Source: an uncultured Bacilli bacterium (GTDB lineage: Bacteria; Bacillota_I; Bacilli_A; RFN20; CAG-449). From it: DNA of 64,000 nucleotides. The DNA lies in NCBI GenBank assembly GCA_947591215.1, contig CANQCZ010000004.1:1770-65769 (forward strand), read 5' to 3'. Below, in pieces: positions 7,436-63,202 of the stretch (the first letter of the stretch is position 1; each line of letters begins with the position of its first letter). The notes beneath the pieces were generated by a model. The model was given only the letters and a program-made list of their open reading frames with translations. It ran no database searches and was not told where the DNA came from. Made by a program: the position numbers and the translations under genes.

Positions 7436-7436
7436 A

Positions 7437-10295: not shown

Positions 10296-10312
10296 ATCAT
10301 TACTCTCCTTCG

Positions 10313-10352
10313 AAAAAAAATTCATTTAGGAGGAGGATTGCTCCTCCTAAAT
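10313..10352 (-). terminator. intercistronic rho-independent terminator/attenuator between the binding-protein and permease genes
   Basis: On the minus strand: ATTTAGGAGGAG-caatc-CTCCTCCTAAAT, a perfect 12-bp stem, followed by GAATTTTTTTT. Confidence 0.65.
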
Positions 10353-30961: not shown

Positions 30962-31818
30962 TTTACAGATCTCGCTTTCTCAATTTGTGCTATCAAGGAA
31001 TCAAAATCTTTTATTTCACTCAATTCCAGATTCATTCCATTAGCGATCAGTTTTTTGGCAAAAGAAATAATATGCGGTTCTTCTAAAGAAATTTCTTTTA
31101 GTAACTCTTCATCTTTAAATAATTCGCTCGGTTGTTCAATTTTAACAATCTTTGCATCTTTCATGACCACCGCACGATCGCAGTATTTTAAAACATTGTC
31201 CATATCATGTGTGATCATAATAACTGTGGTTCCACGTTCATTGATGGTCTTAAAAAGACTCATCATCTCTTTGGCACCTTGAGGATCAAGACCGGCAGTC
31301 GGTTCATCTAGCACCAAAATCTGCGGTTCCAATGCGATGATTCCCGCAATCGCGACACGTCGTTTTTGTCCTCCGCTTAACTCAAAAGGCGATTTATTGA
31401 ATAATGATTCTTCTATTCCGACTAACGATAGAGCTTTTTTAGCCTTTTCTAAAGCAACTTGTTCGCTGTCTTTAAAATTTTTAGGTCCGAAAGCAACGTC
31501 TTTTAAAACCGTTTCTTCAAATAGTTGATATTCTGGAAATTGGAAGACCAATCCGGCATACTTTCGTAATTCTTGTAATTTATTAACCTTTTTATCGGCA
31601 GCATCTATTACATAGTCGCCTACTAAAACTTTTCCTTTGCTTGGACGCAATAACGCGTTTATATGTTGAACTAAAGTCGACTTTCCACTACCGGTGTGAC
31701 CGATAATCGCGGTAAACGTTCCGTCTTTAATTTCTAAATCAATTCCATCTAAAGCCAAGTGCTCAAATGGAGTTTTCGGCAAATAAAGAAATGAGACATT
31801 TTCAAATTTTACTGACAT
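30958..31818 (-). CDS. ecfA2: ECF transporter ATPase A2
   Basis: Walker A GHTGSGKST, signature LSGGQKRRVAIAG, Walker B LVLDEPTAGLD. Confidence 0.9.
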   Translation of the reverse strand: MSVKFENVSFLYLPKTPFEHLALDGIDLEIKDGTFTAIIGHTGSGKSTLVQHINALLRPSKGKVLVGDYVIDAADKKVNKLQELRKYAGLVFQFPEYQLFEETVLKDVAFGPKNFKDSEQVALEKAKKALSLVGIEESLFNKSPFELSGGQKRRVAIAGIIALEPQILVLDEPTAGLDPQGAKEMMSLFKTINERGTTVIMITHDMDNVLKYCDRAVVMKDAKIVKIEQPSELFKDEELLKEISLEEPHIISFAKKLIANGMNLELSEIKDFDSLIAQIEKARSVK

Positions 31819-32624
31819 AAACGTCTCACCACCTCTTCTTCGTTTAAAGCATCATCGAGATCAATTCCTTTATTTTTTAGTTCTCTTTTTAAACGAACTA
31901 AAAAAGGAATATCAAGATCAATGTTTAAAAGTTCTTCATAATGAGAAAATACCTCATTAGGAATTCCATCAAACATAATTTTACCATCAGATAAAACCAC
32001 AACACGACTGGCGAGATAAGCTTCTTCAATATCGTGAGTGATTGAAATAATCGTCAAATTCGGATTATCGCCTTTCATTTTAGAAACCAACGTTAAAATT
32101 TCTTTACGACCTTTAGGATCTAACATCGCAGTCGCTTCATCAAGAATTAAAATATCCGGATTCATCGCTAAAACACCGGCTAGTGCTACCCGTTGTTTTT
32201 GGCCACCCGATAAATTGCTTGGTTCTTGATCAAGAAAGTCGAACATCCCCACTTTTTTTGAAAATTCATCGATCACATCATCCATTTTTTCTTGCGGGAT
32301 TCTCCGATTTTCTAACCCAAAAGCGATATCATCGCGAACCGTCGAACCGATAAATTGATTATCCGGATTTTGAAACACGATACCGACTTTTTCTCTTATG
32401 GTATGAATATTCTTTTCATTGACCTCGTTTTCCATCACTTTAATCGACCCGGATTTAGCTTCTAATAATCCGATGATCAATTTTGCCAAAGTCGATTTAC
32501 CGCTTCCGTTGTGACCGATAATACAAACGTGACTACCTAACTCAATTTCTAAATTAAGCTGTTTTAAAACCTCTTGATCTTTGGTATATGAAAAAGATAA
32601 ATTCTCAATTTCAATAGCTTTCAT
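31809..32624 (-). CDS. ecfA1: ECF transporter ATPase A1
   Basis: Walker A GHNGSGKST, signature LSGGQKQRVALAG, Walker B LILDEATAMLD. Confidence 0.9.
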   Translation of the reverse strand: MKAIEIENLSFSYTKDQEVLKQLNLEIELGSHVCIIGHNGSGKSTLAKLIIGLLEAKSGSIKVMENEVNEKNIHTIREKVGIVFQNPDNQFIGSTVRDDIAFGLENRRIPQEKMDDVIDEFSKKVGMFDFLDQEPSNLSGGQKQRVALAGVLAMNPDILILDEATAMLDPKGRKEILTLVSKMKGDNPNLTIISITHDIEEAYLASRVVVLSDGKIMFDGIPNEVFSHYEELLNIDLDIPFLVRLKRELKNKGIDLDDALNEEEVVRRLCQ

Positions 32625-47700: not shown

Positions 47701-48012
47701 TTATAACTTAATTTCGATATCGACACCACTTGGCAAATCCAAACGAGTTAAAGTATCGATGGTTTGCTTTGTTGGATTGATGATATCGATTAATCTCTTA
47801 TGTGTTCTAATTTCGAACTGTTCTCTTGCATCCTTGTATTTGTGGACTGCTCTTAAAATTGTGTATACTTGCTTTTCCGTTGGAAGCGGTACAGGTCCGA
47901 CAACAGATGCTCCGGTATTTTTCGCTGCTTGAACGATCTTCGAAACGGAAAGATCGAGAATGTTGTGATCGTAAGCTTTTAAGCGAATTCTAATCTTTTT
48001 ACTTTTTGCCAT
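47701..48012 (-). CDS. rpsJ: 30S ribosomal protein S10
   Basis: [16 protein letters not shown]...[11 protein letters not shown]. Start at 48012, preceded by AAGGAGG. Confidence 0.95.
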
Positions 48013-48143
48013 AATTTCCTCCTTGTCTAAATCTTGGCTAGACATTACGCTCGGTGGAAGTTACCTATTTCAACGACAACGATTGTCGGTGTTTAGCAAT
48101 CTTTCACTTCAACGCGTGCAGTATAAAAAGCGTCGACTTTGGC

Positions 48144-48173
48144 ATTATACAAAACTTTATACGCTATAGTCAA
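48144..48173 (-). promoter_or_regulatory. sigma-A-type promoter of the S10 operon
   Basis: Minus strand: TTGACT-18 nt-TATAAT, with TG immediately 5' of the -10 element. This gives a leader of about 125 nt that contains a CGACAA-tcg-TTGTCG hairpin. Confidence 0.6.
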
Positions 48174-48328
48174 CAAGATTTTTGATTTTTGTAATAAAGT
48201 TGTAAATTTTAATTAAGCTTTTTAATAGGCGTTTCTAAATAGGCATAAAAATGCACATAATTTTTTTAATTACTATATCCTTATTAAAAAGAACCGCCAG
48301 TTAAATTCACCACACATTTTAATATTTT

Positions 48329-48357
48329 TTGATTTTTCATTGAATAGTAAGTATAAT
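48329..48357 (+). promoter_or_regulatory. candidate promoter of the apbE cluster
   Basis: TTGATT-17 nt-TATAAT, 15 nt upstream of the first ATG. Confidence 0.5.
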
Positions 48358-48371
48358 CTAGTCGAGGTGAC

Positions 48372-49724
48372 ATGACAAAGATGAAAAGAATTTTAACTAT
48401 TATATGTTCCCTTATCATGACTTGCGTTTTAGGAGCATGCCAAAAAGATTATGATCCTCACCCAGATTATACTCCAAGTTCTTTTTGCTCAAGTGAAAGT
48501 TCTTCTCTTCATTCTTCTAAAGCGAAGGTTATTAATGTGTGTGCCACAAGTCAAACAAAAATTTTGAATCATAATAAGTCCCATTCATCCAATCCATTTG
48601 ATACTTTGATTTATTTAAGATACGATGCATCAATCACGACACAAGAGCTTATGCAAATAGAAAATATTATTGGAAACACTTTAATACGTTTGCATAAAAT
48701 TGCCGATAGAAATTATTATTATACTGCTGATAATAGCGAAACTTTAATTAATAATATCAAAGTCATAAATGATTCTTATGGAACAAACAAGATTATTGAA
48801 AATGTTGACGATGATCTTTTAAATATGCTTGAAATGGCACTAGATGCAACTAAGAAAGGCAACAATAAATTTAATCCTTTTGTTGGCGAACTTTCTGATT
48901 ATTGGGATTCAATTATTGATGATAGCGATCATTTTAATGATCCTCTTAACACCGATAATCCTAATCGAGAAGATTCTTTAAAAAAGATTAATGAATTAGT
49001 CGCCAGTATTCCTACTTATGAAGAAATTATCGAAAATAAAATATTAGAAATCGATCACGTTCATAAAACCGTAAAATTCAATAAATTTAAAAATGTCGAC
49101 AAATTATCTTTGACTTTAGGCGGAATTGCTAAAGGATATGCAATTGATGTTTTAGCTAAGAATTTAATTGCTGAAGGATTTAACAAAGGTCTTATCAATG
49201 GTGGCACTAGTTCTTTAGAATCTTTAGGAGATGCAACTTTTACCGACGCTTGGTATATCGCACCGCAAAATCCAAATACTTTTAACAATTACTACAGTTT
49301 TGATGCCGATAAAAACTATATTGGTAACGTTAAATTGAACGGAGTTTTTAATGTTTCTACTTCCGGAGATGTAGAACGTGGTTATTATTTTATTAATCCT
49401 AATGATTCGACTGTCATTAGACGTAGACATCACATTGTAAATACTGATACCGGAATCCCAAGCAACTATTATCGCACTGTCACCCTTTTTTCAAGCGACA
49501 TTGATGCCGGTTATTTAGATGCGTATTCAACTATAGTTTTCAATATGCCTTTTGATGAAGCAAAAGCTTTTATCAAAAAAATTCGTGAAACGAATGATTT
49601 ACATGCAATCTTCATTCAAGAAAACGTTCAAGATATTAATAGTGTTTTGATTGATCAAGAACTATATCAACATTATAGTAATAATCAAAATTTAAATCTT
49701 CAGGTAGAAACTTATGAAGTTTAA
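48372..49724 (+). CDS. apbE: FAD:protein FMN transferase (ApbE family) lipoprotein with a long N-terminal linker
   Basis: Lipobox VLGAC. ApbE signature LSLTLGGIAKGYAIDV. About 130 residues after the lipobox are not recognisably ApbE-like. The start may instead be the second ATG at 48381, which has better spacing from GAGGTG. Confidence 0.8.
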   Translation: MTKMKRILTIICSLIMTCVLGACQKDYDPHPDYTPSSFCSSESSSLHSSKAKVINVCATSQTKILNHNKSHSSNPFDTLIYLRYDASITTQELMQIENIIGNTLIRLHKIADRNYYYTADNSETLINNIKVINDSYGTNKIIENVDDDLLNMLEMALDATKKGNNKFNPFVGELSDYWDSIIDDSDHFNDPLNTDNPNREDSLKKINELVASIPTYEEIIENKILEIDHVHKTVKFNKFKNVDKLSLTLGGIAKGYAIDVLAKNLIAEGFNKGLINGGTSSLESLGDATFTDAWYIAPQNPNTFNNYYSFDADKNYIGNVKLNGVFNVSTSGDVERGYYFINPNDSTVIRRRHHIVNTDTGIPSNYYRTVTLFSSDIDAGYLDAYSTIVFNMPFDEAKAFIKKIRETNDLHAIFIQENVQDINSVLIDQELYQHYSNNQNLNLQVETYEV

Positions 49725-50160
49725 AACTAAATTCAGCAAAGTTGATATCTTTTTTATTCCTATAGTCTTAATCGCATCTTTAATTCTTTCACTAGTGGTT
49801 TTTTTTGGCAATAGCGATACTCCAAGTGCCGTTTGTGTTTATGTTCAAGGCAAATTAGAATATAGTGAAAAACTTCCCGTCACAAAAAAAATTTATTTAT
49901 ATAAGACTGAAGAATCTGCAAAACAACATGGAGAAAACAAATGGTTTGACTGTTTGCAAGCGGATATGACGATTGAAATCGACGGACGTTCTGTGCGAGT
50001 TGAAAAAGAACAATCCCCACGTCATATTTGTTCACAACGCGGTTGGTTTACGACTCCTAACCTTCCGGTTTTGTGTGAACCTAATTCAGTATTAGTAATC
50101 ATTGAAAGTAGAGAAGATAATGATTTTATCGTACCGATTGGGGTGAAATTCAATGGGTAG
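49714..50160 (+). CDS. NusG domain II (DUF1312)-containing membrane-anchored protein
   Basis: N-terminal TM segment. The SPRHICSQRGWFTTPNLPVLCEPNSVLVII region matches the conserved Cys pattern of the NusG_II family. Overlaps both neighbours. Confidence 0.7.
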   Translation: MKFKTKFSKVDIFFIPIVLIASLILSLVVFFGNSDTPSAVCVYVQGKLEYSEKLPVTKKIYLYKTEESAKQHGENKWFDCLQADMTIEIDGRSVRVEKEQSPRHICSQRGWFTTPNLPVLCEPNSVLVIIESREDNDFIVPIGVKFNG

Positions 50161-50674
50161 TTCAAAACAAATCAGACGAATCACCACCCTAGCGATGTTT
50201 CTGGCTTTATCGGTTCTTCTCCATTATTTAGAATCATTACTCCCGGTCATCGTACCTATACCTGGTGTTAAACTTGGTTTAGCCAATACCATGGGATTAA
50301 TTGTCTTATACTTTTTTAATCGAAGAGATTTTGTCGCTATCGGTTTTTTAAGAGTGATGCTTGTCGGTCTTTTAACTACCGGTATTTTCACAAGCGGATT
50401 TTTTATTTCCTTTTCGGGATGGCTTTTATCTACTTTAATAGTATTGTTACTTTCTAATTTTAAATTTTTCAGTATTTATAGCCTATCTGCATGTTCTGCA
50501 ATTTTTCATGGTATTGGTCAAGTTGCTTGTTCCGCAATCCTATATTCTTCAATTTACATGATGGCATACACACCTATTATCGTTTTAAGCGGACTTATAA
50601 CCGGAATTTTAGTCGCTTTTTTATCTTCTCTCTTGATAAATCAATTGGAAAAAACAAAATTATTTATTAATTAA
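50153..50674 (+). CDS. Gx transporter family protein (heptaprenyl-diphosphate-synthase-component-I-like, PF07456-like)
   Basis: Five TM segments and the GVKLGLANTMGLIVLYFF motif. This family usually partners with NusG_II proteins. Confidence 0.7.
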   Translation: MGSSKQIRRITTLAMFLALSVLLHYLESLLPVIVPIPGVKLGLANTMGLIVLYFFNRRDFVAIGFLRVMLVGLLTTGIFTSGFFISFSGWLLSTLIVLLLSNFKFFSIYSLSACSAIFHGIGQVACSAILYSSIYMMAYTPIIVLSGLITGILVAFLSSLLINQLEKTKLFIN

Positions 50675-50701
50675 AAATTTTTGATTTTAATTTTAAATTT
50701 G

Positions 50702-50730
50702 TTTACAAACTAATATTATCTATATAAAAT
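50702..50730 (+). promoter_or_regulatory. candidate promoter of the two-domain lipoprotein gene
   Basis: TTTACA-17 nt-TAAAAT, followed by a strong AAGGAGG RBS. Confidence 0.5.
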
Positions 50731-50762
50731 ATAGACGCATTCATTAAGGAGGAAATATTTTA

Positions 50763-51839
50763 ATGAAGAAGAATGTATTATGTGCTTTAGCACTCTTAGG
50801 AGTCGTCGGAACTCTTGCTTCATGTGGTGGAAATGAAGGCGAACCCTCATCAAATGGTGGAGCATCTTCTAATTCTACTAACGGAGGTACTAGTACTGCT
50901 TACAAATTAGGTTTAGGACAAGCGATTAGTCTTACAAAAGGAGACGATGATATCATAACTCAAATTGATATCACCTTTGCTTCTGTGGTTTACCAAGGCG
51001 AAAAAGTTGTTAGCACCTACATCGATGTAGTACAACTCCCAATCGTCTACACTGCTGCGGACGGTGATACTGAAGAAAGTTACGCTTACAAAGACACTGC
51101 AAATCAAGTCAAAAACGCTGGAGATAAAAACGTTGAGACTAAAAAGGAACTTAAAGAGCGTTATGGTATGTCAGTTATCCCAGGTGTTACAGAATGGTAT
51201 GTCCAAGCTGGTAAATTTGAAGATTGGGCTACCGGTAAAAATTTCAACGATTTAACTGTTACCAAAGGCGAAGTAGACGATAACCATAGTGAAGAATGGA
51301 CTAATAACGTCACTGGTTGTACTATTTTAGTTGACGATTTCGTCACCGCGATGAAAAACGCCAAAAATCACAGCGTTGATTTTACTTCAGATGAAGCTCC
51401 AAAAGCTGGTGTCGGTGTTCTTGTCGGTGCTGCCGGTAGTCAAATTGATGTCAACTTTGCTTCAGTTGCTAACGTTGGAAACAAGGCTGCCGCAAGTGTT
51501 GTCGATGTTTATCAAATTCCTTTAAAAGAAGGAGTTTTAGATGCTGATAACAAGGCCGTTAAAAACAAATTAGACGGTACCGAATTTGCTTCTAAGTTTG
51601 AACTTAAGGAAAACTATGGTATGTCAGTTATCCCAGGTGTTACAGAATGGTATGTCCAAGCTGAAAAATTCCAAGAATGGGCTATGGGAAAAACTTCCGA
51701 AGAATTAAATGGCTTTACCGTCGGTCAACCAGACGATAGTCATAGTGAAGAATGGACTAACAATATCACTGGTTGTACTATGTCAGTCGGAGATTTTGTT
51801 GCTGCTATTCAAGAAGGCATGACCAACAAAAGAGCTTAA
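50763..51839 (+). CDS. lipoprotein with two tandem FMN_bind-like domains (PplA-like candidate flavoprotein)
   Basis: Lipobox TLASCGG. An internal duplication of about 150 aa, with each copy ending in ...YGMSVIPGVTEWYVQA...HSEEWTNN(V/I)TGCT.... The TGCT aligns with the SGAT flavinylation motif of FMN_bind domains. Confidence 0.7.
   Translation: MKKNVLCALALLGVVGTLASCGGNEGEPSSNGGASSNSTNGGTSTAYKLGLGQAISLTKGDDDIITQIDITFASVVYQGEKVVSTYIDVVQLPIVYTAADGDTEESYAYKDTANQVKNAGDKNVETKKELKERYGMSVIPGVTEWYVQAGKFEDWATGKNFNDLTVTKGEVDDNHSEEWTNNVTGCTILVDDFVTAMKNAKNHSVDFTSDEAPKAGVGVLVGAAGSQIDVNFASVANVGNKAAASVVDVYQIPLKEGVLDADNKAVKNKLDGTEFASKFELKENYGMSVIPGVTEWYVQAEKFQEWAMGKTSEELNGFTVGQPDDSHSEEWTNNITGCTMSVGDFVAAIQEGMTNKRA
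51162..51210 (+). repeat. 49-nt exact direct repeat, copy 1 (inside the lipoprotein gene)
   Basis: tatggtatgtcagttatcccaggtgttacagaatggtatgtccaagctg is identical to 51615-51663. Confidence 0.9.
51615..51663 (+). repeat. 49-nt exact direct repeat, copy 2
   Basis: Identical to 51162-51210. The flanking codons have diverged. Confidence 0.9.
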
Positions 51840-51869: not shown

Positions 51870-51899
51870 AGGTGTGGCTTTATCGCTACACCTTTTTTG
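51870..51899 (+). terminator. rho-independent terminator after the lipoprotein gene
   Basis: AGGTGTGG-ctttatcg-CTACACCT followed by TTTTTTG. Confidence 0.7.
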
Positions 51900-52007
51900 T
51901 TGAATAATGGCAAAAATTTATCACATTTTCATTAGATAATAACATGTTGATAATTAACTACTTTCAAGGATTTTCAAATTTAACTATAATATGGTTAAGG
52001 TAAAGAT

Positions 52008-52415
52008 ATGCAAAGAAAATTATTATATTTTATACTTCCGATTATTACTCTTGTTTTAGAAATATTACCCTATGGAGCAGTATGTATTTTTGCTGATGGC
52101 TTAAATCATATTCGCCGAGTGACATATTCTTACTTTGATTTAATTCCATTTGGAAATGCTAATTTTGCACCATTACTGACAGCGATAATAAGTTGTATTG
52201 TTATTATTATACTTATAATCTATTTATTTATAGATAAGTATCGAATAATATCGCTAGTAAAAACATTACTTTTAGTCGCTTTGATATTATCATTATGTCC
52301 TTTACTCTATGGTTTCGATTATTATTCACTTATCGACCTACTGATTACCTTATCTATATTTTCGGAATTACTATTGTTATCTTTAACTACAAAAAACACA
52401 AATGTTGAAAAATAA
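52008..52415 (+). CDS. hypothetical 4-TM membrane protein
   Basis: A very AT-rich 135-aa ORF consisting of hydrophobic helices. No family recognised. Confidence 0.45.
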   Translation: MQRKLLYFILPIITLVLEILPYGAVCIFADGLNHIRRVTYSYFDLIPFGNANFAPLLTAIISCIVIIILIIYLFIDKYRIISLVKTLLLVALILSLCPLLYGFDYYSLIDLLITLSIFSELLLLSLTTKNTNVEK

Positions 52416-52810: not shown

Positions 52811-54832
52811 TTAATCTTTCACTGAGATTTGGCTTTTAAAAGCGTTCCAAAGACGACTGCGTTTATATTGTTCCACTAAGCTTGAAGGAACTGTAAATTC
52901 AGCTTTTTCATCTATTGAATAAAATGCATTTGCACCAAATGGTATGACTCTATCGCAGTGAATCAAAATCTTTTTAAGCCAATGGCAATAGCGAAAAGCA
53001 TTCATTCCTATCTCGACAGTTTCTGCCGGCAATTCAATCGTCTCTAATTCGTCACAATATGCAAATGCCCAGTCGCCTATTCGGTTAACATTATTGAAAA
53101 TAATTGTTTTCAATGCGCTGTTGTTATAAAAACTCCACCTACCGAAATTTTTCACATCATTTAACTCAAGCATTTCCAAATACGGATTGTTCCGGCAAAA
53201 ATCATCGCATATATCGCCGTGCACAATTAACGTTTTTATTTGAGGACACTCACCTGAAAAATAATACGAGAGTTTACGGTTACCGGGAATATCCATCTGT
53301 TTCAATTTGATACAATTATAAAAGATTCCTTTACCTATGCTTGTGGACTTTGCAATAGAAACAGACCGCAAATCCGTCGCGTAAAACGCATAATCTCCGA
53401 TAGAATGTCCTATGAATTCAAAATCTTTAACAGCTGTTTTTCCAAAAGCCACAATTCCGATTTTTTGAAGATCATTCGGCACGACACATAGACTATGGCA
53501 ATTCCATAACGCTCCCTTTTCTGCATAAACCAATCCTTTCACATTTATAAGCTGCGCACAATTTGTCATGGCGCAAGGAGCAAAATTTTTTACAGCAATC
53601 TGCTTTAAGGAAGAACATCCGAACATGCCAAACTTGCCTATCGAATCTATGTCGAGATTTTCATCCAGCATTTTGCAATTGTAAAATGCAAACGGTGGGA
53701 CTGATTTGGGGATAAAATCGACATGTTTTAAGCTTGTACAATTGTAAAATATGCCCTCTGGAAAATCTATCTTCTTTCCAAATATCACTGATTCAACCTT
53801 TGTATTGGCAAAACAATATCCCGAAAGCATCTCTATACCATGCGGCAAGGTAACTTCCCGTTCGATACCTAAATATTTATATAATGTCTTGCCTAGAATG
53901 GCAAATGAGCCTTGATCTTTAAACCACTTTGTGTCGTACAAAGCACTGTTTCCAATATGCTCTACGCTTTCACCACCATGGATTAACTTAAGGTTTTTTG
54001 CCCCAAGGAAAGCGTGTTCGCCGATGAATTTCAAAGTATGTGGAAGATTTATTTCAACTAAACCACTACACTTTGAGAATGCGTAATCTCCGATCATCTC
54101 AATGCCATCGGGAATTAGTATTTCCGTCATTTCACTGCGATCATGAAATGCGCCACTTGCAATAACCTTTACCGGTACACCGTCGATCTTTGCCGGTATA
54201 ATATGCTTTTTTAAACTTTTCCCTTCTTTCGTCAATCCTTTGATCTCAATAATATCGCCTTTACGGTTATACTTAAACTCATGATAGATCCCAAAGGACT
54301 TAGTTTCATATTTAATGTTTGAAGCGTTTTTGGTCGACAGCACTACAATCTTACAAAATTCACATCTCTCGTCGTATATCTTTTCAAATATATACGGCGG
54401 AGTAGAAGATGAGCAAAGCAATTTGATATTAGGATACATTTTTCTCAACCGATTGGCAAATAAAAACCAATCGCCACACTCCTGAATCTCATTAACAACA
54501 AGATATGTAATTTCATGCCGTTCCATAATTGCCTTTTGAAAAACATCTAAAATATTCGCTTCTTGCAGAAACGGCAATTCGTAATCAAGATATAATATTT
54601 GTTCTTTTTCTATACCTCGCTGCAAAAGATCGCGGCAAATACGACCAAGCATATCTGTCTTACGCAGCCCCGTTTCCCCCACCAAAAAAACATAATTATT
54701 CTGTGCGTTATCAAAATATAGTTCTTGCACTTCATTGTAATCATACGCAAATGCTGGATCGGAAAAATCTGTGTCAGGTGCGTCTTCGAAAACGTCATGA
54801 TTTATAATATAATTGATAAATTTTTCTTTCAT
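52811..54832 (-). CDS. AAA_14-like P-loop NTPase domain (degenerate Walker motifs) fused to BspA-type leucine-rich repeats (LRR_5)
   Basis: Residues ~45-165, YVFLVGETGLRKTDM...ILYLDYE...YLVVNEIQECGDW...KLLCSSS, follow the AAA_14 layout. From residue ~210 to the end there are about 10 repeats of the form IP.gv..IG..AF..C..L. No signal peptide and no TM segment. Confidence 0.75.
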   Translation of the reverse strand: MKEKFINYIINHDVFEDAPDTDFSDPAFAYDYNEVQELYFDNAQNNYVFLVGETGLRKTDMLGRICRDLLQRGIEKEQILYLDYELPFLQEANILDVFQKAIMERHEITYLVVNEIQECGDWFLFANRLRKMYPNIKLLCSSSTPPYIFEKIYDERCEFCKIVVLSTKNASNIKYETKSFGIYHEFKYNRKGDIIEIKGLTKEGKSLKKHIIPAKIDGVPVKVIASGAFHDRSEMTEILIPDGIEMIGDYAFSKCSGLVEINLPHTLKFIGEHAFLGAKNLKLIHGGESVEHIGNSALYDTKWFKDQGSFAILGKTLYKYLGIEREVTLPHGIEMLSGYCFANTKVESVIFGKKIDFPEGIFYNCTSLKHVDFIPKSVPPFAFYNCKMLDENLDIDSIGKFGMFGCSSLKQIAVKNFAPCAMTNCAQLINVKGLVYAEKGALWNCHSLCVVPNDLQKIGIVAFGKTAVKDFEFIGHSIGDYAFYATDLRSVSIAKSTSIGKGIFYNCIKLKQMDIPGNRKLSYYFSGECPQIKTLIVHGDICDDFCRNNPYLEMLELNDVKNFGRWSFYNNSALKTIIFNNVNRIGDWAFAYCDELETIELPAETVEIGMNAFRYCHWLKKILIHCDRVIPFGANAFYSIDEKAEFTVPSSLVEQYKRSRLWNAFKSQISVKD

Positions 54833-55512
54833 TTTTGATTCTCTCCCAAGGTTAAAAGTCTATTGTATACGGTCGAAAATTTTCCAACATCTTTGTCCAC
54901 GTGATAATGTCCGAAATACCATTTACGATACTCAACCGTATCTTTGATTGTCTCTAAATAATCGTTCAAAATTCGTTCTTGCGGCACAAGATTGGCTCCT
55001 ATTCGTTCGGCGACTGAAGTCGGTGCAACATGGGTAAGAACATAATCTACACGATTGCCGCACTGTTTCAAATTGGTTATTCCTCTTTCATATTCCTGTT
55101 CATTTGGCATTTCTTGATCCCATACGGAAATCGGCGAGGTTCCGTCAAGTTTTTTTACCGAAAAGCCACCCCCGAAAACGAATATCTTTGTATTATCGAA
55201 TGAAAATATGCATCCTCTCATCAGTCGATAGATTTTATCGCTAATTTTTTGCGCTTTGCCACCAAAAAAATTCTGTTCCTCATATTGTTCCAGCAGGTCG
55301 AAATTCTCATGATTGCCATCCAAAAACAAAGTTATATTCGGCAAAGAGTTATAAAACTCCCTTACCTCCTTATGTTCGGTTTTACTCCAAACGATTCCAG
55401 CATCTCCGAGAATAATGAGATAATCATCTTTTTGCAAGGGTATATTTTGCAAGAGTCCTTTAAGATAAGGAAGTCTTATATGCCCATGAATATCCGAAGT
55501 TAAATAGATCAT
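54829..55512 (-). CDS. calcineurin-like metallophosphoesterase
   Basis: Motifs SDIHGH, LGDAGIVW, DGNHEN and THVAP. Confidence 0.8.
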   Translation of the reverse strand: MIYLTSDIHGHIRLPYLKGLLQNIPLQKDDYLIILGDAGIVWSKTEHKEVREFYNSLPNITLFLDGNHENFDLLEQYEEQNFFGGKAQKISDKIYRLMRGCIFSFDNTKIFVFGGGFSVKKLDGTSPISVWDQEMPNEQEYERGITNLKQCGNRVDYVLTHVAPTSVAERIGANLVPQERILNDYLETIKDTVEYRKWYFGHYHVDKDVGKFSTVYNRLLTLGENQK

Positions 55513-58145
55513 TTAACGACCTCCTTTATAAGAGATGTAGATGTGTGAGCAAAAGCATTTTCTCCAAATGTAACTCCTCGTTTATAAGTAATCCGGGCAA
55601 GAGCTTTATCATAAGCAAAGGCCTTTTCATCTACATTCTTCACGTTGCGCAAATCTATTTCACGTAAATAATACGCATCCGATAAAGCTCGAAAAGCAAT
55701 TTTCTCCGTTACGTCAGGCGCTGTATATTTTTCATTCTTCTTCCCGATTGCATATTGAAGTAATGTTTTTTTATCAGCAGTATAAAGGTTGCCGTCTTGT
55801 GATGCAAATGCCGCATTGTTATCCGATACCGATATCCACTTTAGGCGTTCACAAGAACCGAATGCATAAGTACCGATTTCAATGACATTCGACGGGATTG
55901 ATATTTCACTCAACAAATCGCAACCATGGAATGCCCACGCACCGATAAAGACGAGCGAATCGGGAAGTTCAATTACAAGCAGATTTTTGCAATCGTCAAA
56001 TGCGCTAGTCTCAATTTTCTTAACGGTGCACGGCAATATGACTTTTTCGATGTTCCTTGCATTTTGAAATGCGTTACGTCCGATTGTTTCAACTCCCTCA
56101 GGAACAGTATATACTTTTTCGGGGGAAGCAAGCGGATACCTTACAAGCGTTTTCTTGTCCTTAGAGAACAGCACCCCAGATTCCGTACAATAAAATTTGT
56201 TATCTTTCTCAACGAAGATTTTTTTAATGCTGCTCGAATAGAAACAAGTTGGATCGACAACTTTGACAGAAGCATTTACATATAACTTTCCGGCATAAGA
56301 ATTATTTGTGCCGATTTCTTTCAATTCATCATAATGAACGAATCTCAATTCATGGCTTTGCGTCAAAGCTTCCACGTCGATTCCATAAGCAAATAAATCA
56401 CGCATGGTACGTTCAGCATCTTGCTCTAAGGCTTTCAGCAGATATTCCTTTGCTTTTTCCAAATCTTTTTCCACGCCTACTCCGTTCAAAAAACAATATG
56501 CTATGTCTCCGGTTCCGTGCGAATAGTGGTTCTTTGACGCCATTTCAAAATATTCCATAGCCTTTTGCGCATCAGCTTTTACGCCGTATCCGTGCAAATA
56601 ATTTTGTCCAACATCGCGCATCGAATGAACATATCCAAGATCGGCGGATTTCTTATACCAATAAAAAGATTTCTCTTCATTCTTCTCTACGCCCTGTCCC
56701 ACAAGATACATATAACCAAGGTCACACATTGCTTCGAGATTTCCCAAATTGGCCGCTTCTAAATAATATCCGAAAGCTATGTCAAAATTTCGCACTTTGC
56801 CGAGCCCAAACGAATACATATCGCCGAGAAGTACTAAAAAATCCGCTTTTTTATTTTTCGCCTTGCGTTCTATCTCGTCTTTTATTTCTGCTACGATTGA
56901 TTGTGCTTTGGAAATATCTTGAGAAGCACCATTCCCTTCAAAGTAACCTAATGCATAGTAAAATGCGCCTTTAGGATTTCCAAGCTTGGCCGCTCTAAAG
57001 AAACAGATTTGCGATAATTCTTTGTGCCGATAAAATCTTTTGCTTCCGATAGAATATTCTTTTCCTCTTTTAATCCATTCCTCAGAATCGATATTCGAGT
57101 AAATCCCATCGAAAACTCCAACTAAATAGTGGTCATCAAACCAAGCACATTTACAAGGCTGCACACTACGTTCCAGTCTGGACAAAGTGTCGATTTTTTC
57201 TATCCAAAGTTCCTCCTTGAGCGGCAAATATTCAAGCAAGCCAAGTTGTGCTTCTTGCGTAATCATCTCAGACACTAGACATTTGATACCGACCGCCTGT
57301 GCCTCAATCGAAACTATCGATAAACCCTCATATAAAGACGGCAATAGCAATCCATATGATAACGACATGAGTTCTGTAATGTTGCTGTCAGGTGGTAAAA
57401 TCTTAATATTATTAAGTCCGTTACGCGAAATAAAACTCTCGATTTCTTGCTGTAAATGACCATGACCTACAAAAACAAACCCAATATCCGTTCTATCCCG
57501 CATATTCAAACACAGATTTAATAAAAATTCGATATTCTTTTGCTTCGCAAATCTTCCCACGAATAAAAAATATTTTTTGTTTGCATCTAATCCGTACTTT
57601 GCAAATTCTTTATTGTCCATGTCGAAGAATCGGGAATAATCTATTGCATTGTATATTGTTTCGCCATCACGTCCATATAGGAACTCTCTTGCCGCATCGG
57701 AGCAAGCGAGGCAATGCGTCGCATATTTTTTTACCATCCGTGCAGAAATTGCTTTTGCTATTCTCTTTCCTAAAGTCAAGCCACGTGGATTGGCTTGATG
57801 ACAGTGGGATATCCGAACCGGCACGTTTTCTTTATATGATTGCTTCAAGTACAATCCATTATTTGAAAAATAGTGCGAATGAACGGCAATCGGCTTCTCT
57901 TTTCTTATGATTTCTCTTATTTGTTTTGACTGCCGCAATGAGCGTATAAGTCCCCGTCCCTTAACGCATACATCATACACTTTCCCACCTAGTGATAAAA
58001 TCTCTTCTCGATAATGGTCGTTTCTCTTTGCCGTATTAATAAAAATAAATTGATACTCGGTATGCATTTTGCGATACAATGTCATAATAAAGGACGAAAT
58101 CCCGTTTATTCTCAAATTGCCACCTATTTGAATGACTTTTTTCAT
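55509..58145 (-). CDS. GT4-family glycosyltransferase fused to Sel1 repeats and BspA-type LRRs
   Basis: Residues 1-~340 form a GT-B fold with FLFVGRFAKQKN and YEGLSIVSIEAQAVG. Residues ~385-600 hold about 5 Sel1-like repeats (LGYMYLVGQGVEKNEEKSFYWYKKSADLG and similar). Residues ~640-878 hold LRR_5 repeats (VPEGVETIGRNAFQNARNIEKVILP...). No signal peptide. Confidence 0.75.
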   Translation of the reverse strand: MKKVIQIGGNLRINGISSFIMTLYRKMHTEYQFIFINTAKRNDHYREEILSLGGKVYDVCVKGRGLIRSLRQSKQIREIIRKEKPIAVHSHYFSNNGLYLKQSYKENVPVRISHCHQANPRGLTLGKRIAKAISARMVKKYATHCLACSDAAREFLYGRDGETIYNAIDYSRFFDMDNKEFAKYGLDANKKYFLFVGRFAKQKNIEFLLNLCLNMRDRTDIGFVFVGHGHLQQEIESFISRNGLNNIKILPPDSNITELMSLSYGLLLPSLYEGLSIVSIEAQAVGIKCLVSEMITQEAQLGLLEYLPLKEELWIEKIDTLSRLERSVQPCKCAWFDDHYLVGVFDGIYSNIDSEEWIKRGKEYSIGSKRFYRHKELSQICFFRAAKLGNPKGAFYYALGYFEGNGASQDISKAQSIVAEIKDEIERKAKNKKADFLVLLGDMYSFGLGKVRNFDIAFGYYLEAANLGNLEAMCDLGYMYLVGQGVEKNEEKSFYWYKKSADLGYVHSMRDVGQNYLHGYGVKADAQKAMEYFEMASKNHYSHGTGDIAYCFLNGVGVEKDLEKAKEYLLKALEQDAERTMRDLFAYGIDVEALTQSHELRFVHYDELKEIGTNNSYAGKLYVNASVKVVDPTCFYSSSIKKIFVEKDNKFYCTESGVLFSKDKKTLVRYPLASPEKVYTVPEGVETIGRNAFQNARNIEKVILPCTVKKIETSAFDDCKNLLVIELPDSLVFIGAWAFHGCDLLSEISIPSNVIEIGTYAFGSCERLKWISVSDNNAAFASQDGNLYTADKKTLLQYAIGKKNEKYTAPDVTEKIAFRALSDAYYLREIDLRNVKNVDEKAFAYDKALARITYKRGVTFGENAFAHTSTSLIKEVVK

Positions 58146-59806
58146 TTTCGAATTATCTCCGCTTTACAATTATTGAAGGTATTCGGAAGAATCTTTATAT
58201 GTTTCGGTACAATAACTCTTTTCAAGCCATGACATCCATCAAAACACCAATCGGCAATTTCTTCCACGCTTTCGGGAATCTCTATTTCTTCAAGCTCGAC
58301 GCATTCCGAAAATGCACTCCTGCCAAGAAAGCGGAGCCCCTTCGGCAGTACGATTTTTTTAAGTGTGTAGCAACCTGTAAAAGCACTTCTACCGATATTG
58401 ACTACGCCTTCCGGCAAAACAATATTTCCTTCTTTTACCGCCGTCGAGGGACAAAAAACCACCTCTTTCCCTGTGGCATCATATAAGATGCCGTACCGCT
58501 CCATATAATATGGGCTATGATTTTCGAGAACTACGTTTCTACAATTCGCAAACGGATTATAACCAATCTGTCTGACAGAGGCTGGAATTATAATTTTTTC
58601 TATCATATCGCAATTCCAAAAACAATTTCTCCCAATGGTCCTTACTGTTTCGGGGAGTTTTACAATTTTTACTCCCAATCCCATCGAATAATGCATACAA
58701 GTAGTAATATTTTTGTCATACAATACGCCATCGATATAATGAAAATATTCACTTTCATTTTTGAGTTTGATGTTACGACAATCCGAAAAAGCATTGTTTC
58801 CCATAAATGTCACATTCTTGGTTATGACAACAAGGCGGAGATTTACGCATTTGTAAAAGCTGTGCTTACCTATCCACGTTACGCTTTCTGGAATTCGGTA
58901 TTCCCAAGAAGGATTGCTTGCCGTATAATGAATCAAAAACTTCATTTCACGATCAAACAGAACTCCATCTTTCAGGACAAAATACACACTGTTGTTTTCT
59001 ATTTCAATATCTAGGCAACCCGCAAACGGATCATCTCCCATTTCATCGACACTAGCAGGAATATTTATTTTTTTCAGGTTTTTACAGTAAACAAAAGCAT
59101 CACCGCAAATACAAGTCACACTATCTGGCAAAATTACTTCCTTAATAGCAAGATTTTTCCAAAAAGCCCCCGTGCCTATGCTTGTAATTCCGTTCGGTAT
59201 CTTCACAACAGGAGCACTGCCGAGATATTTTATCAATTCACCATTTTTGACATAAAACTCTTTCTCGTATTCTTGTTCATCGTAATCAATAGAAAAAGTA
59301 TCAGGATACAATGGAGCTTTTTTTTCAAACAACCCTTTGGTAAATTTCTTATCCAACACATGGATTTCTGACTTAAAATCCACAAGGCCACCGGAAAGTT
59401 GTGAAGTGTAGAGACATTCATTCTTCCCGCTCGATCGATAGCCACTTATGAGTTTCTCATAATCTTTTCCCCACCCGGAAACATAAATTCCAATATATAA
59501 AATTTTTGTCTGCGGATAAGTAATAGCAATATCATAGCCATCTGAATTGACAAGCACGCAAGAAGAATCATATCCCTTCTTCAACAATCTATCTATCACT
59601 TCTAAAATTGAGAAATCTTTGTACGCACGCAACTCGTAACTCTCACCACGATATTCAAACCTCTGCTCCTCGGAATATATTGTAATCGCGCAATCCTTAT
59701 AACGATATTTAAAGATATCGGGCGCCACTTCAAGGTAACCCAATTTCCGATAGAGAATAATGTATTTCATGTCAATAAACAATGTGTCTTTATGTTTTTC
59801 AATCAT
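58142..59806 (-). CDS. unknown ~190-aa N-terminal domain fused to BspA-type LRRs
   Basis: The C-terminal ~360 aa are LRR_5 repeats (IPNGITSIGTGAFWKNLAIKEVILP, LPEGVVNIGRSAFTGCYTLKKIVLP). I do not recognise the N-domain. No signal peptide. Confidence 0.7.
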   Translation of the reverse strand: MIEKHKDTLFIDMKYIILYRKLGYLEVAPDIFKYRYKDCAITIYSEEQRFEYRGESYELRAYKDFSILEVIDRLLKKGYDSSCVLVNSDGYDIAITYPQTKILYIGIYVSGWGKDYEKLISGYRSSGKNECLYTSQLSGGLVDFKSEIHVLDKKFTKGLFEKKAPLYPDTFSIDYDEQEYEKEFYVKNGELIKYLGSAPVVKIPNGITSIGTGAFWKNLAIKEVILPDSVTCICGDAFVYCKNLKKINIPASVDEMGDDPFAGCLDIEIENNSVYFVLKDGVLFDREMKFLIHYTASNPSWEYRIPESVTWIGKHSFYKCVNLRLVVITKNVTFMGNNAFSDCRNIKLKNESEYFHYIDGVLYDKNITTCMHYSMGLGVKIVKLPETVRTIGRNCFWNCDMIEKIIIPASVRQIGYNPFANCRNVVLENHSPYYMERYGILYDATGKEVVFCPSTAVKEGNIVLPEGVVNIGRSAFTGCYTLKKIVLPKGLRFLGRSAFSECVELEEIEIPESVEEIADWCFDGCHGLKRVIVPKHIKILPNTFNNCKAEIIRK

Positions 59807-60392: not shown

Positions 60393-62087
60393 CTAATTAC
60401 TCGTTCTGGCACGAACTTCATTTTTCTTGCCCGATGTAAAACCGTCTAAAATTTCAAGATAACCGCTAACCCGTCTGATATGCGTTACATTTTCACACCC
60501 GCAAATCGGGCACAGATCAAACACCCCGGTGGCATGACAATTGTTGCAACTGTCAAGCGGAAAATTGATGCCGAGATATCTTACCCCCGCTGCAACTGCA
60601 ATTTCAACAAGCTCTTTAAGTCCCTCGTCGTTGCCTATCGGTGCCTCATTTAATTCGATATATGAGATGCTCCCACCATTTGCATAGAGGTGGAACGGTC
60701 CTTCTTTTGTCAGCTTTTCTCTTGCGGAAAGCCCGCTATCTACATTAACATGAAACGAATTTGTATAAAAACCCTTATCAAAGATATCGATATTTGGAGA
60801 AAACATCTTCTTATCCATTTCCGAAAATCTACCGCTTATCAACTCTCCACTTGTAGCAAGCAAAGAAAAGTTCAAATTTAATTTATTTCTTTGTTCGTCG
60901 CAATAGTTTCTCATAAACTTTACAAAATCAATGGCAATACGATAGGATTCATCGTTGGCATAATACCTGCTGCCTGTTATAATCTCGACCATCTCCGAAA
61001 GTCCGATAAATCCGATTGAAAGAGTACCATGTATAAACACATTCTTCGGATCATCGAATGGCACACACCACAATTGTCTTGATCTGTTTACGGGAAACTC
61101 ATCTGCATCGGAAATACATACCTTATGATAGCGATCCACCAAAATTTCGGTAACCATATCCGCTATTTCGGACCACCTCTCTTTTACCTTTGCAATTTTA
61201 TGAACCCACTCAAGATTTGGAAAGTCCCGATCCACTTCAAGAGCAAGTCGAGGAAGATTGATGCTGATATTAGCGATGTTTCCTCTTCCAATTGCCGTTT
61301 TCTCTCCAAATAGATCGTCAACCACACGCGTGCGGCAACCCATTACAGAAAGCTTTTCGGGAGCGACTCCTTCATCGGACGCACAATCGCAAAGAAGATA
61401 TGTCGGAATCATCTTCTTAGCCGAACATAGTAGTGCTTTTTGGAATAAATCAAAGTTGCCGTCTCCCGGATACCTATTGATTCCTTTTACGACCTTAAAC
61501 ACGATATTTGGCTTAAAAGTTGTCGCTCCTACCTTTTCGAATTCATTGATAAGTGCATATGCGATGAACCTCGCGAATTTATTTTTTGCAAGTCCTATAT
61601 TAAGCGTTATGTAATAACTTGTCTGTCCCATTCTTGTATGGGTGTTGCTGCACCAAATAATAAAGTCCCCTATGCATTCGGAGATAATGGCTTCCGTATG
61701 TTTTGAGTGCTTAACGCCGAGTTTAAAAAAAATTGTTGAAAGGTCATTATCGAAATTTGCGAATGCCATCCCACCGGACTGCTCATTTCCCATATCGGCA
61801 AACAACGTTTTAAAATAGCCGAATACCCGTATGATTTTTCCCGTTTCCGATAATCCATCAAACAATTGATATGGAAAATTTTGTAATAGGTTAAATGTCA
61901 AACAATTATAAGTTTTTCCGTAAGCATCTAGGTCATGAATGTGAATGTACCCTTCCGTGTGAAGTTTGGACCATTCTACGGGCAAAGAATCCAAAATTTC
62001 TTTTTTAAACTCTTTTTCGCCTTTATGATACACATAACCTACATAACTTGAGCGATTCGCCGCATTATCATTTGAAACTTGTTTCAT
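60393..62087 (-). CDS. nrdD: anaerobic ribonucleoside-triphosphate reductase (class III, short form without ATP-cone)
   Basis: C-terminal Zn ribbon CNNCHATGVFDLCPICGC followed by the glycyl-radical motif RRVSGYL. Adjacent to the activase. Confidence 0.85.
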   Translation of the reverse strand: MKQVSNDNAANRSSYVGYVYHKGEKEFKKEILDSLPVEWSKLHTEGYIHIHDLDAYGKTYNCLTFNLLQNFPYQLFDGLSETGKIIRVFGYFKTLFADMGNEQSGGMAFANFDNDLSTIFFKLGVKHSKHTEAIISECIGDFIIWCSNTHTRMGQTSYYITLNIGLAKNKFARFIAYALINEFEKVGATTFKPNIVFKVVKGINRYPGDGNFDLFQKALLCSAKKMIPTYLLCDCASDEGVAPEKLSVMGCRTRVVDDLFGEKTAIGRGNIANISINLPRLALEVDRDFPNLEWVHKIAKVKERWSEIADMVTEILVDRYHKVCISDADEFPVNRSRQLWCVPFDDPKNVFIHGTLSIGFIGLSEMVEIITGSRYYANDESYRIAIDFVKFMRNYCDEQRNKLNLNFSLLATSGELISGRFSEMDKKMFSPNIDIFDKGFYTNSFHVNVDSGLSAREKLTKEGPFHLYANGGSISYIELNEAPIGNDEGLKELVEIAVAAGVRYLGINFPLDSCNNCHATGVFDLCPICGCENVTHIRRVSGYLEILDGFTSGKKNEVRARTSN

Positions 62088-63202
62088 TTTTTCTCCCTCA
62101 GATTAATAAATTTTTGATTCGAAGATCCCAAATATGGTCTTGTCGTTGTTTTGTACCTTTCGTCAAATGCACCGATTTTAACGTAATGCAATTTTGACAA
62201 TATTGCTTGTGGTATGTCGGGCATATCATAACCCGTGTACATACAAAAATCAAATTCAGGCAACGCTTCAATTAGATTTTCGATTGCCTTTGCTTGCAAA
62301 AGCGGTTCGCCTCCCGAAAGAGTGATTTTTTTATTGAACGCCGTTTTGCGTATAATCTCTTTCAATTCTCCGACCGAGTATCGCGTGCCGCTTTCAAGCG
62401 GCCAAGTAGATGGGTTGTGACAATTTTTACAATGCCGTTTGCATCCTTGCAAATATATCACTGTTCGTAGCCCCGGTCCATCCACAAGCGACTCATGCTT
62501 CGAAATGGCATTGACATACAGCATCGAACTTTCAAATACTTCTTTCAGACATTTTAAGTTCGGAAGAGCAAGCATCGCTTTACTCGACGGGTGTTCCGTT
62601 ATCAAAATCGGCGTCAGCCCCACTGCTTCCGCTCCCTCGCAATCCTTGTCGATCTTATTCCCTACAAAATAAATTTCCCGACTTGCTCCCATCCCGATCA
62701 ATTCAAGGACTGCAGCAAAAGCTCGTTCCGACGGCTTTCTGTATCCAATATCTGCGCTGGAAATTAATCCTACAAAAAACTTAGATAAATAAAAGGTATC
62801 TAGATATTTTTTCAGTGTTACTGCAGAGAAAATGCTATTGCTAAGTACCGCCATCTTGTAACCACGCTCTTTCAAATAAGAAAGCGTATCAACTGCACCC
62901 TCTGACACTCTTTCCTTTCGGCAACAGATAAATGCCTCCCATTCAATATCTGCATACGATTTGGCAAAATGCTTACCAGTTTTCGTTTCATAAAACTTTA
63001 ACTGATGGACAAAACTTGTCTCACGATTGGTTTTATCTCTATCGCTCATATATTGCGAACGATATTCGGAAGCCAAATCATATATCCGTTTCTTTGCTTC
63101 GCCGAGACGTTCGGCTATGAGATCTAAAACCATATTATAATCGAACTGCTCCGTTTGAAGTAACGTTCCGAATAAGTCAAATAAAATAACTTTATCACTC
63201 AT
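62084..63202 (-). CDS. nrdG: fusion protein: HAD-superfamily hydrolase domain plus anaerobic RNR activating radical-SAM protein
   Basis: Residues 1-~215 are HAD (ILFDLFGTLL, VLSNS, YRKPS, FVGNKIDKD). Residues ~227-372 are NrdG (DGPGLRTVIYLQGCKRHCKNCHNP, ITLSGGEPL, GSSNQKFINL). One uninterrupted frame. No SD precedes the internal Met at 62524. Confidence 0.8.
   Translation of the reverse strand: MSDKVILFDLFGTLLQTEQFDYNMVLDLIAERLGEAKKRIYDLASEYRSQYMSDRDKTNRETSFVHQLKFYETKTGKHFAKSYADIEWEAFICCRKERVSEGAVDTLSYLKERGYKMAVLSNSIFSAVTLKKYLDTFYLSKFFVGLISSADIGYRKPSERAFAAVLELIGMGASREIYFVGNKIDKDCEGAEAVGLTPILITEHPSSKAMLALPNLKCLKEVFESSMLYVNAISKHESLVDGPGLRTVIYLQGCKRHCKNCHNPSTWPLESGTRYSVGELKEIIRKTAFNKKITLSGGEPLLQAKAIENLIEALPEFDFCMYTGYDMPDIPQAILSKLHYVKIGAFDERYKTTTRPYLGSSNQKFINLREKK

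Follow-up and report, generated by a model that had tools for sequence, protein, structure and literature searches.

A predicted extracytosolic flavinylation gene cluster with a two-domain, FMN-bind2-type lipoprotein in an uncultured rabbit-gut Bacilli bacterium

The extracellular electron transfer (EET) locus of Listeria monocytogenes encodes FmnB, EetA, EetB, PplA, FmnA, Ndh2 and DmkA/B. In this organism EetB is the substrate-binding subunit of an energy-coupling factor (ECF)-type transporter and, together with the ECF-T paralog FmnA and EcfA/EcfA', exports flavin adenine dinucleotide (FAD) for use by FmnB (PMC9973259). PplA is unflavinylated in a delta-eetB strain; a clean delta-eetA strain is without an EET phenotype, and EetA is functionally unexplained (PMC9973259). 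Data Set S1 of the same study (Rivera-Lugo et al., mBio 2023, PMC9973259) equates NusG_II (PF07009) with EetA and PF07456 with EetB, and for eetB the study reports colocalisation with eetA (3328 genomes), apbE (2169 genomes) and, in Clostridia, Rnf (572 genomes). Here a cluster of four plus-strand genes (apbE, eetA, eetB and a lipoprotein gene, gene 4) is described from a 64,000-nucleotide stretch of contig CANQCZ010000004.1 (GenBank assembly GCA_947591215.1, positions 1,770 to 65,769), referred to below as the window. The host is an uncultured Bacilli bacterium of the rabbit gut, and the closest loci also come from rabbit-gut metagenome-assembled genomes (MAGs) of uncultured Bacilli bacterium.

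The lipoprotein encoded by gene 4 is best compared with the FMN-bind2 subtype of flavin mononucleotide (FMN)-binding domains. According to the available text of the paper describing it (Huang, Meheust, Barquera and Light, mSystems 2024, PMC11334425), FMN-bind2 has ~160 residues compared to ~120 for FMN-bind1, and a protein often contains two or four such domains. The beta1-beta3 face of the sheet is extended by insertions, and adjacent domains associate pseudo-symmetrically to form a unit bearing two flavinylation sites. As presented there, the subtype was described from AlphaFold models only, and its exemplar (NTW96865.1, from an Erysipelotrichaceae bacterium) lacks an InterPro entry and was identified with BLAST, not with Pfam.

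All four open reading frames (ORFs) are present at the coordinates given in a preliminary description of this DNA, which had proposed a candidate extracytoplasmic flavinylation module (Table 1). The proposal is supported by the identities of the genes, the register of the flavinylation motif and the conserved linkage of the genes in relatives. It is likely that the cluster encodes the machinery for extracytosolic protein flavinylation along with the substrate of this machinery, a two-flavin electron-transfer lipoprotein.

The first gene encodes an ApbE-family FMN transferase. Its product matches PF02424 with 121.8 bits (cut-off 25.6, E 4.8e-35) and contains the GGIAKGYAID motif from which the family had initially been recognised. 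A signal peptide, a lipobox (LGAC, Cys23) and a Ser-rich linker of ~100 residues can be read from the sequence; the signal peptide and lipobox, with an lgt gene also in the window, indicate an extracytosolic location. Lgt is required to lipidate both ApbE and the product of gene 4. The enzyme is divergent, with the best relative in the PDB reaching only E 1.3e-5 in a search at a relaxed threshold. Aligned to TM1553 (1VRM) and Vibrio cholerae ApbE (6NXI), it nevertheless keeps GGIAKGYA, TSGD, the histidine of HHI and DAYST. The corresponding GGxxKG, the Ser of TSGD, the catalytic-base His and the Asp/Thr Mg site are FAD-binding or catalytic residues (PMC12052999). From this alignment the protein is predicted to be an active FMN transferase, with its catalytic and Mg-binding motifs retained.

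The second and third genes had been described as a membrane-anchored NusG_II/DUF1312 protein and a Gx transporter (PF07456-like), and both identifications hold. The second product matches PF07009 with 50.9 bits (cut-off 29.6, E 1.9e-13) and has a hydrophobic segment at residues 12-31. It shows the features of the EetA family, namely a profile score above threshold, a single N-terminal membrane helix and an adjoining eetB. The third product matches PF07456 over its full length with 111.4 bits (cut-off 30, E 5e-32), in addition to a weak ECF_trnsprt match (E 0.015). Since these two families are EetA and EetB (PMC9973259), the earlier statement that no EetA/B genes are adjacent was incorrect. The accompanying view that neither protein has an established function remains true of EetA, but not of EetB, which is a FAD exporter (PMC9973259). 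By analogy with the Listeria protein, the only EetB for which export has been demonstrated, the third product is EetB, a putative FAD exporter. Listeria EetB depends on ECF-T, A and A', and counterparts of all three are present in the window. They lie in the series ecfA-ecfA'-ecfT-truA (29391-32624, minus strand), in the usual place after ribosomal protein operons and 16 kb from the flavinylation cluster. No dedicated FmnA-like ECF-T paralog was seen in the window, and by the same analogy this shared ECF module is probably the partner of EetB.

The product of gene 4 has a signal peptide, a lipobox (LASC, Cys21) and a Gly/Ser/Asn linker, as read from its sequence, and residues 1-41 are disordered in the AlphaFold model. 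Its two halves are 50% identical over 135 residues (E 2e-42), far past what is expected by chance, and the original reading of a lipoprotein made of two homologous halves is thus correct. Each modelled domain consists of three long strands (13-17 residues) and the helices that come after them, with the Thr of the motif placed just before the last helix. The full-length AlphaFold2 (AF2) model has a predicted local distance difference test score (pLDDT) of 82.5 and a predicted template-modelling score (pTM) of 0.80, the latter of which suggests a defined mutual arrangement of the two domains.

A word-indexed search for homologs returned 15 relatives, none with recorded Pfam domains. The impression of a rare family given by this number was rejected, as an exhaustive hidden Markov model (HMM) search with the alignment of these 15 relatives recovered 2078 representatives at E<=1e-3, and 755 at E<=1e-30, counted at 50% identity clustering. 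Members are mostly ~330 residues long, with some of 650-990. A domain HMM located 363 domains in 163 family proteins; 146 of these proteins have two domains, 12 have four, 2 have six and only 3 have an odd number. In having tandem domains the family resembles the multi-FMN extracytosolic proteins (Meheust et al., eLife 2021; 8P2B, "FMN4 domain 1"), which are likewise secreted or anchored proteins of Gram-positive bacteria, and it too reaches four to six domains. However, the characterised multi-FMN proteins use FMN-bind1 domains as "beads on a string", whereas the gene 4 domains would pair into two-flavin units.

By the published description, rather than by alignment to the exemplar sequence, the family matches FMN-bind2. 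The points of agreement are the domain lengths (Table 1), the long strands, the even copy number, the lack of an InterPro signature, the Bacilli-type host and a probable two-domain unit with two predicted flavin sites. The novelty of the domain type was therefore overestimated at the outset, as it had already been described as FMN-bind2 (PMC11334425). NTW96865.1 was not among the 10 members of the cluster looked up for the gene 4 family. Three features of this family are not mentioned for FMN-bind2 in the available text of PMC11334425: Cys as the dominant residue at the third motif position, linkage to apbE in 9 of 10 loci, and members with six domains.

The family can also be connected to FMN_bind itself. 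The full-length family profile matches PDB 2KZX (E 1e-9), with iaGCTI aligned on DAISGATI, and the matched segment of 2KZX scores 25.7 bits on Pfam FMN_bind against a cut-off of 22 bits. A second profile was built, to exclude circularity, from 38 domains, each with Cys or Val at the third motif position. It still matches 2KZX (E 1.2e-9) in the same register and, weakly, domain 1 of the multi-FMN protein 8P2B, again in the same register (DVHSGATV). When compared by hhalign with a small alignment of RnfG sequences, the motif and the helix after it fall on the RnfG site (E 2e-4). These alignments support the proposed correspondence of TGCT to the SGAT site of FMN_bind. Apart from FMN_bind, no Pfam family is matched by more than a single member of the family; the FMN_bind matches (2 of 15 and 3 of 38 relatives) are weak (best E 1.3e-4). 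By sequence, 2KZX (an uncharacterised protein solved by nuclear magnetic resonance) is the closest solved relative of the family. The two share the half of the domain that contains Y-x-M...EW-x-EQA...G-K...xG(A/C)TI...helix; 2KZX differs in being a single domain of 131 residues with the canonical SGAT. On this evidence the gene 4 product appears to be a divergent double FMN_bind-type protein, related to FMN_bind as a remote homolog.

The genomic context of the family was compared in ten distinct loci, in which the window was counted together with two near-identical MAG copies (L001 and L002); identities given below are those of tblastn to the window lipoprotein. A profile search with a five-sequence alignment gave two near-identical rabbit-gut MAG loci. 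The ten loci span lipoprotein identities of 24-69%, and in nine of them apbE is no more than 3 kb from the lipoprotein gene. The order apbE-eetA-eetB-lipoprotein is common to the window, L005/L006 (32%), L007 (43%) and L009 (26%). In L003 (30%) and L004 (69%) the lipoprotein gene, apbE and eetAB are found at the tail of rnfCDGEAB. The order in L011 (27%) is eetB-lipoprotein-apbE, the apbE-eetAB module of L010 (67%) is 2.7 kb off, and in L012 a 991-residue, six-domain member has apbE directly 3'. Colocalisation of eetB with eetA and apbE, where the genes of the window overlap, is likewise seen in L002-L007 and L009-L011.

The module is divergent from the S10 ribosomal operon in the window (47701-48372), L002, L005/L006 and L009; L007 has the same gene order but gave no match to S10. 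The lipoproteins at the S10-divergent loci are only 26-87% identical to that of the window, and this points to an old and stable position. Between the window and L002 the lipoprotein is 87% identical, EetA and EetB are 97-98% identical and S10 is 99% identical, so that the surface protein evolves fastest.

The remaining locus, L008 (24%), has no apbE on its short contig. The gene next to the lipoprotein gene (5421-5987) is truncated, and the N-terminus of its product matches FAD_binding_2 of the fumarate-reductase type above the cut-off (E 5e-8). This neighbour possibly points to a reductase that partners FMN-bind2 lipoproteins. A flavinylated lipoprotein could accordingly take part in an extracytosolic oxidase or reductase reaction, for instance by supplying a fumarate-reductase-like enzyme or by itself reducing O2, rather than be a general conduit, and a characterised three-FMN protein can indeed use O2 as acceptor (PMC12052999). 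However, the FAD_binding_2 neighbour occurs in one of the ten loci only and is itself without an evident signal peptide, and no such reductase gene adjoins the lipoprotein gene of the window. We regard such a dedicated partnership as very unlikely.

The motif TGCT lies near the end of each half of the window protein, exactly where it had been placed before (Table 1), in the contexts N-N-V-T-G-C-T and N-N-I-T-G-C-T. Its first Thr, its Gly and its final Thr fit the canonical motif D-x-x-[S/T]-G-A-[S/T]. Across the 363 domains of the family, position 1 is Ala, Ser or Thr in 97%, and position 2 is Gly in 61% and Ser in 27%. Position 3 is Cys in 68%, Val in 23% and Ala in 5%. Position 4, counted from the 360 ungapped domains, is Thr in 331 and Ser in 29, and a hydroxyl residue is therefore found in 360 of 360. 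At position -3 Asp is present in 45% of the domains. In mutants, replacement of the Thr by Ala abolishes flavinylation and that of the Asp by Ala has minor effects, while Gly-to-Ala and Ala-to-Val changes still allow ~50% flavinylation (PMC12052999, citing Bertsova 2019).

The Cys at position 3 had been pointed out as standing where Ala is usual. It is present in the window protein, but it is not an oddity of this protein, and Cys as a variant unique to it was rejected: Cys is the majority state of the family and also occurs in a classical RnfG. The RnfG of L003, which has a recorded Pfam FMN_bind match, carries DVDIVAGCTFSS (AGCT). Relatives of this RnfG carry SGVT, AGVT and AGTT, and Rnf subunits of L004 show TGST and ATGVT. 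Because RnfG and other Rnf subunits share these variants, Cys, Val or Thr at position 3 is a lineage-wide habit of these Firmicutes.

Cys186 and Cys338 are the only cysteines of the mature window lipoprotein, and the residues of paired domains nearly always agree at this position (C/C in 103 proteins, V/V in 24, C/V in 5). Together with the prevalence of Cys in the family, this would fit a functional role of the cysteine itself, as a thiol redox centre, in a flavin-cysteinyl adduct or in metal binding. However, full-length members have Val or Ala in its place, as is expected for a buried small hydrophobic residue and not for a catalytic one. The agreement between paired domains is explicable by shared ancestry, and many family members have further cysteines elsewhere. 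Such free exchange with Val and Ala favours a packing role over a catalytic one, and a function for the thiol is hardly to be expected.

Some Rnf proteins of the related loci are unusual in their own right. The RnfG of L003 (13128-14393, minus strand) is unusually long, at 421 residues. The RnfD of L004 (in the region 7392-9601, minus strand) has 546 residues, and its C-terminal extension ends in the FMN_bind-like DHVATGVTYSAKGIQDMAKSAY; it may be an RnfD-FMN_bind fusion. Beside it is a gene for an RnfG-like protein of 184 residues, which has no Pfam match and contains the TGST motif.

Several observations weigh against the interpretation of gene 4 as a flavinylated electron-transfer protein. 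The canonical motif is not kept in full, with Asn for Asp at position -3 and Cys for Ala. On its own the protein has no Pfam match at E<=1, FMN_bind (PF04205) included, and so falls short of the gathering threshold for that family; the profile search suggested in the preliminary description thus fails for the protein and succeeds only with family-level profiles. The protein alone also has no sequence match in the PDB, and no NCBIfam family of note. The anticipated structural match to FMN_bind proteins was not obtained either, since Foldseek against the PDB returned no FMN_bind structure (3O6U, NqrC, RnfG or 2KZX) for the full-length or the single-domain model. Its best hits had E 0.08 (full length) and E 0.014 (single domain, an unrelated VirB8-like protein), with template-modelling scores of at most 0.23. 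The alignment to RnfG by hhalign extends over just 26 columns, with a probability of 47%. The scan of window ORFs of at least 120 residues revealed neither Rnf nor Ndh2 nor Dmk, and the only Pyr_redox_2 protein among these ORFs is TrxB-like (307 residues). The sequencing runs that contain the sequence are rabbit-gut DNA metagenomes only, with no transcript runs among them. Lastly, in the accessible text of the FMN-bind2 literature covalent flavinylation is predicted, and no experimental demonstration of it was found.

The non-canonical residues at positions -3 and 3 and the lack of a Pfam or Foldseek match for the lipoprotein itself would also agree with a different assignment of roles. ApbE, EetA and EetB could serve only other substrates, for instance RnfG and RnfD, while the lipoprotein binds flavin non-covalently for scavenging or handover. 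The position of apbE-eetAB at the tail of Rnf operons in relatives is in keeping with this, as Rnf is a sufficient reason for the module to be there. However, a non-covalent binder would not need a hydroxyl residue at the exact flavinylation position, where it is invariant in the family. The GCT variant is found in a bona fide RnfG as well, and Rnf function requires the flavinylation of RnfG. In addition, apbE adjoins the lipoprotein gene where there is no Rnf nearby (L005, L007, L009, L011 and L012). Non-covalent binding with other ApbE substrates is for these reasons unlikely, and the lipoprotein is very probably a substrate of ApbE.

We infer that the lipoprotein is covalently flavinylated, that EetB uses the shared ECF module and that the lipoprotein transfers electrons; these steps would combine as follows. 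EetB, as an ECF-type S-component working with EcfT, EcfA and EcfA', would carry FAD from the cytosol across the membrane to its outer face, with EetA as the conserved partner of EetB. The membrane-tethered, FmnB-like ApbE would then take this FAD and attach FMN through a phosphoester to Thr187 and Thr339 of the lipoprotein. The two FMN-bind2-type domains may pack into one two-flavin unit, which the lipid anchor and flexible linker would hold at the surface and which could carry electrons outside the membrane. Because relatives encode the module beside Rnf, Rnf is the obvious candidate for the electron donor.

A variation on this scheme is that the module is self-standing and not an accessory of Rnf, as might be suspected from its place next to S10 in four distinct lineages, without Rnf, NADH dehydrogenase or quinone genes nearby. 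This appears rather unlikely. If the genome did lack all known membrane electron-transfer partners, the lipoprotein would be the sole substrate of ApbE and would have to be charged in some way not yet described, perhaps via EetA. Alternatively, its role may be non-respiratory, in surface flavin storage or handover in an auxotroph that imports flavins. In a self-standing module the family-wide Cys beside the flavinylated Thr could tune function instead of being a neutral substitute for Ala.

In comparison with known systems, the cluster would by analogy work like that half of the Listeria EET locus which is responsible for flavinylation. Both have an ApbE-type lipoprotein, EetA and EetB, and in both a lipoprotein with two flavinylation sites (predicted ones in the window) is encoded alongside. 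The parallel with FmnB and PplA drawn in the preliminary description is thus apt, but it needs to be extended to EetA and EetB, which are adjacent. Unlike in Listeria, there is no Ndh2, DmkA/B or FmnA among the scanned window ORFs, and the cluster is therefore not a complete EET system of the flavin-based (FLEET) type. The predicted substrate also differs from PplA, a comparison made by type and not by alignment to the PplA sequence: its domains are FMN-bind2-type, Pfam FMN_bind does not match it, and it carries TGCT in place of the canonical motif. The Rnf-associated ApbE-EetA-EetB modules of Clostridia (PMC9973259) contain the same three genes, and those of L003 and L004 directly follow rnfCDGEAB with the lipoprotein alongside. 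In contrast, the modules of the window, L002, L005/L006 and L009 stand alone, divergent from the S10 operon.

All parts of the locus are of described kinds (ApbE/FmnB, EetA, EetB and FMN-bind2), and as a find it is fairly ordinary; the understanding of the flavinylation mechanism is unchanged. It provides a clean natural example of an ApbE-EetA-EetB module beside a probable FMN-bind2-type substrate. FMN-bind2 proteins are missed by Pfam and InterPro, and the named members of the present family are annotated "hypothetical protein [Clostridia bacterium]". How large this unannotated family is, how tightly its genes are linked to apbE and that x-G-C-T is its usual motif are points perhaps not made before. 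As x-G-C-T is the usual motif, screens for [S/T]GA[S/T] miss most such proteins, and part of the "orphan apbE" problem (Meheust et al.) may stem from this.

The organisation of the cluster is compact. The first three genes overlap, as had been noted, by 11 nucleotides (genes 1 and 2) and 8 nucleotides (genes 2 and 3), and an 88-nucleotide gap separates gene 3 from gene 4. A GAGGTG Shine-Dalgarno sequence immediately precedes the ATG of apbE, downstream of a promoter-like site. The gap before gene 4, previously called promoter-like, does contain such a site, followed by a strong AAGGAGG Shine-Dalgarno sequence. These sites are weak evidence for promoters, because such matches are frequent in the AT-rich DNA of the window (33 found, 22 expected). 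A terminator-like hairpin closes the unit 3' of gene 4. Past it is an ORF (52008-52415) for a multi-pass membrane protein of 135 residues with no family match, which is conserved (81%) only in L002. It was rejected as a member of the unit on account of its position beyond the terminator, its lack of a family and its retention in the closest MAG only.

Table 1. Features of the flavinylation cluster and of functionally related genes in the window
Feature	Coordinates	Strand	Basis or detail
Promoter-like site TTGATT-17-TATAAT upstream of apbE	48329-48357	+	10/12 matches
apbE/fmnB, FAD:protein FMN transferase lipoprotein, 450 aa	48372-49724	+	PF02424
eetA homolog, NusG_II/DUF1312, N-terminal membrane anchor, 148 aa	49714-50160	+	PF07009
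eetB homolog, ECF-S-like membrane subunit, putative FAD export, 173 aa	50153-50674	+	PF07456
Promoter-like site TTTACA-17-TAAAAT in gap 5' of gene 4	50702-50730	+	
Gene 4, lipoprotein with two FMN-bind2-type domains, 358 aa	50763-51839	+	internal duplication, AF2, family profile
FMN-bind2-type domain 1, residues 45-207, 163 aa	50895-51383	+	domain HMM; single-domain AF2 pLDDT 86.4
TGCT motif 1, residues 184-187 (Thr187, predicted flavinylation site)	51312-51323	+	
FMN-bind2-type domain 2, residues 210-357, 148 aa	51390-51833	+	domain HMM
TGCT motif 2, residues 336-339 (Thr339, predicted flavinylation site)	51768-51779	+	
Intrinsic-terminator-like hairpin and T-run 3' of gene 4	51870-51903	+	9-bp stem, 5 GC pairs, then TTTTTTGTTGA
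lgt, prolipoprotein diacylglyceryl transferase, housekeeping	20349-21266	-	PF01790 E 3.7e-51
ecfA-ecfA'-ecfT, shared ECF energising module	30116-32624	-	ABC_tran twice, CbiQ E 1e-44

Other parts of the window contain proteins of unusual composition. Downstream of the cluster, on the minus strand, is a run of large BspA-type LRR_5 proteins (52811-59806). The run includes a 673-residue AAA_14 and LRR_5 protein, a 554-residue LRR_5 protein and an 878-residue fusion of a GT4 glycosyltransferase, Sel1 repeats and LRR_5. Directly upstream of the gene for the anaerobic ribonucleotide reductase NrdD (60393-62087), a 372-residue protein (62084-63202, minus strand) combines a HAD hydrolase with a radical-SAM/Fer4_12 domain, and looks like an NrdG activase with an extra HAD domain. 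A 962-residue protein (7437-10325, minus strand), whose sole Pfam match is a C-terminal BPD_transp_1, is of unusual length for a sugar ABC permease. The maltodextrin-type cluster to which it belongs also encodes a solute-binding protein, a second permease, an alpha-amylase and a pullulanase.

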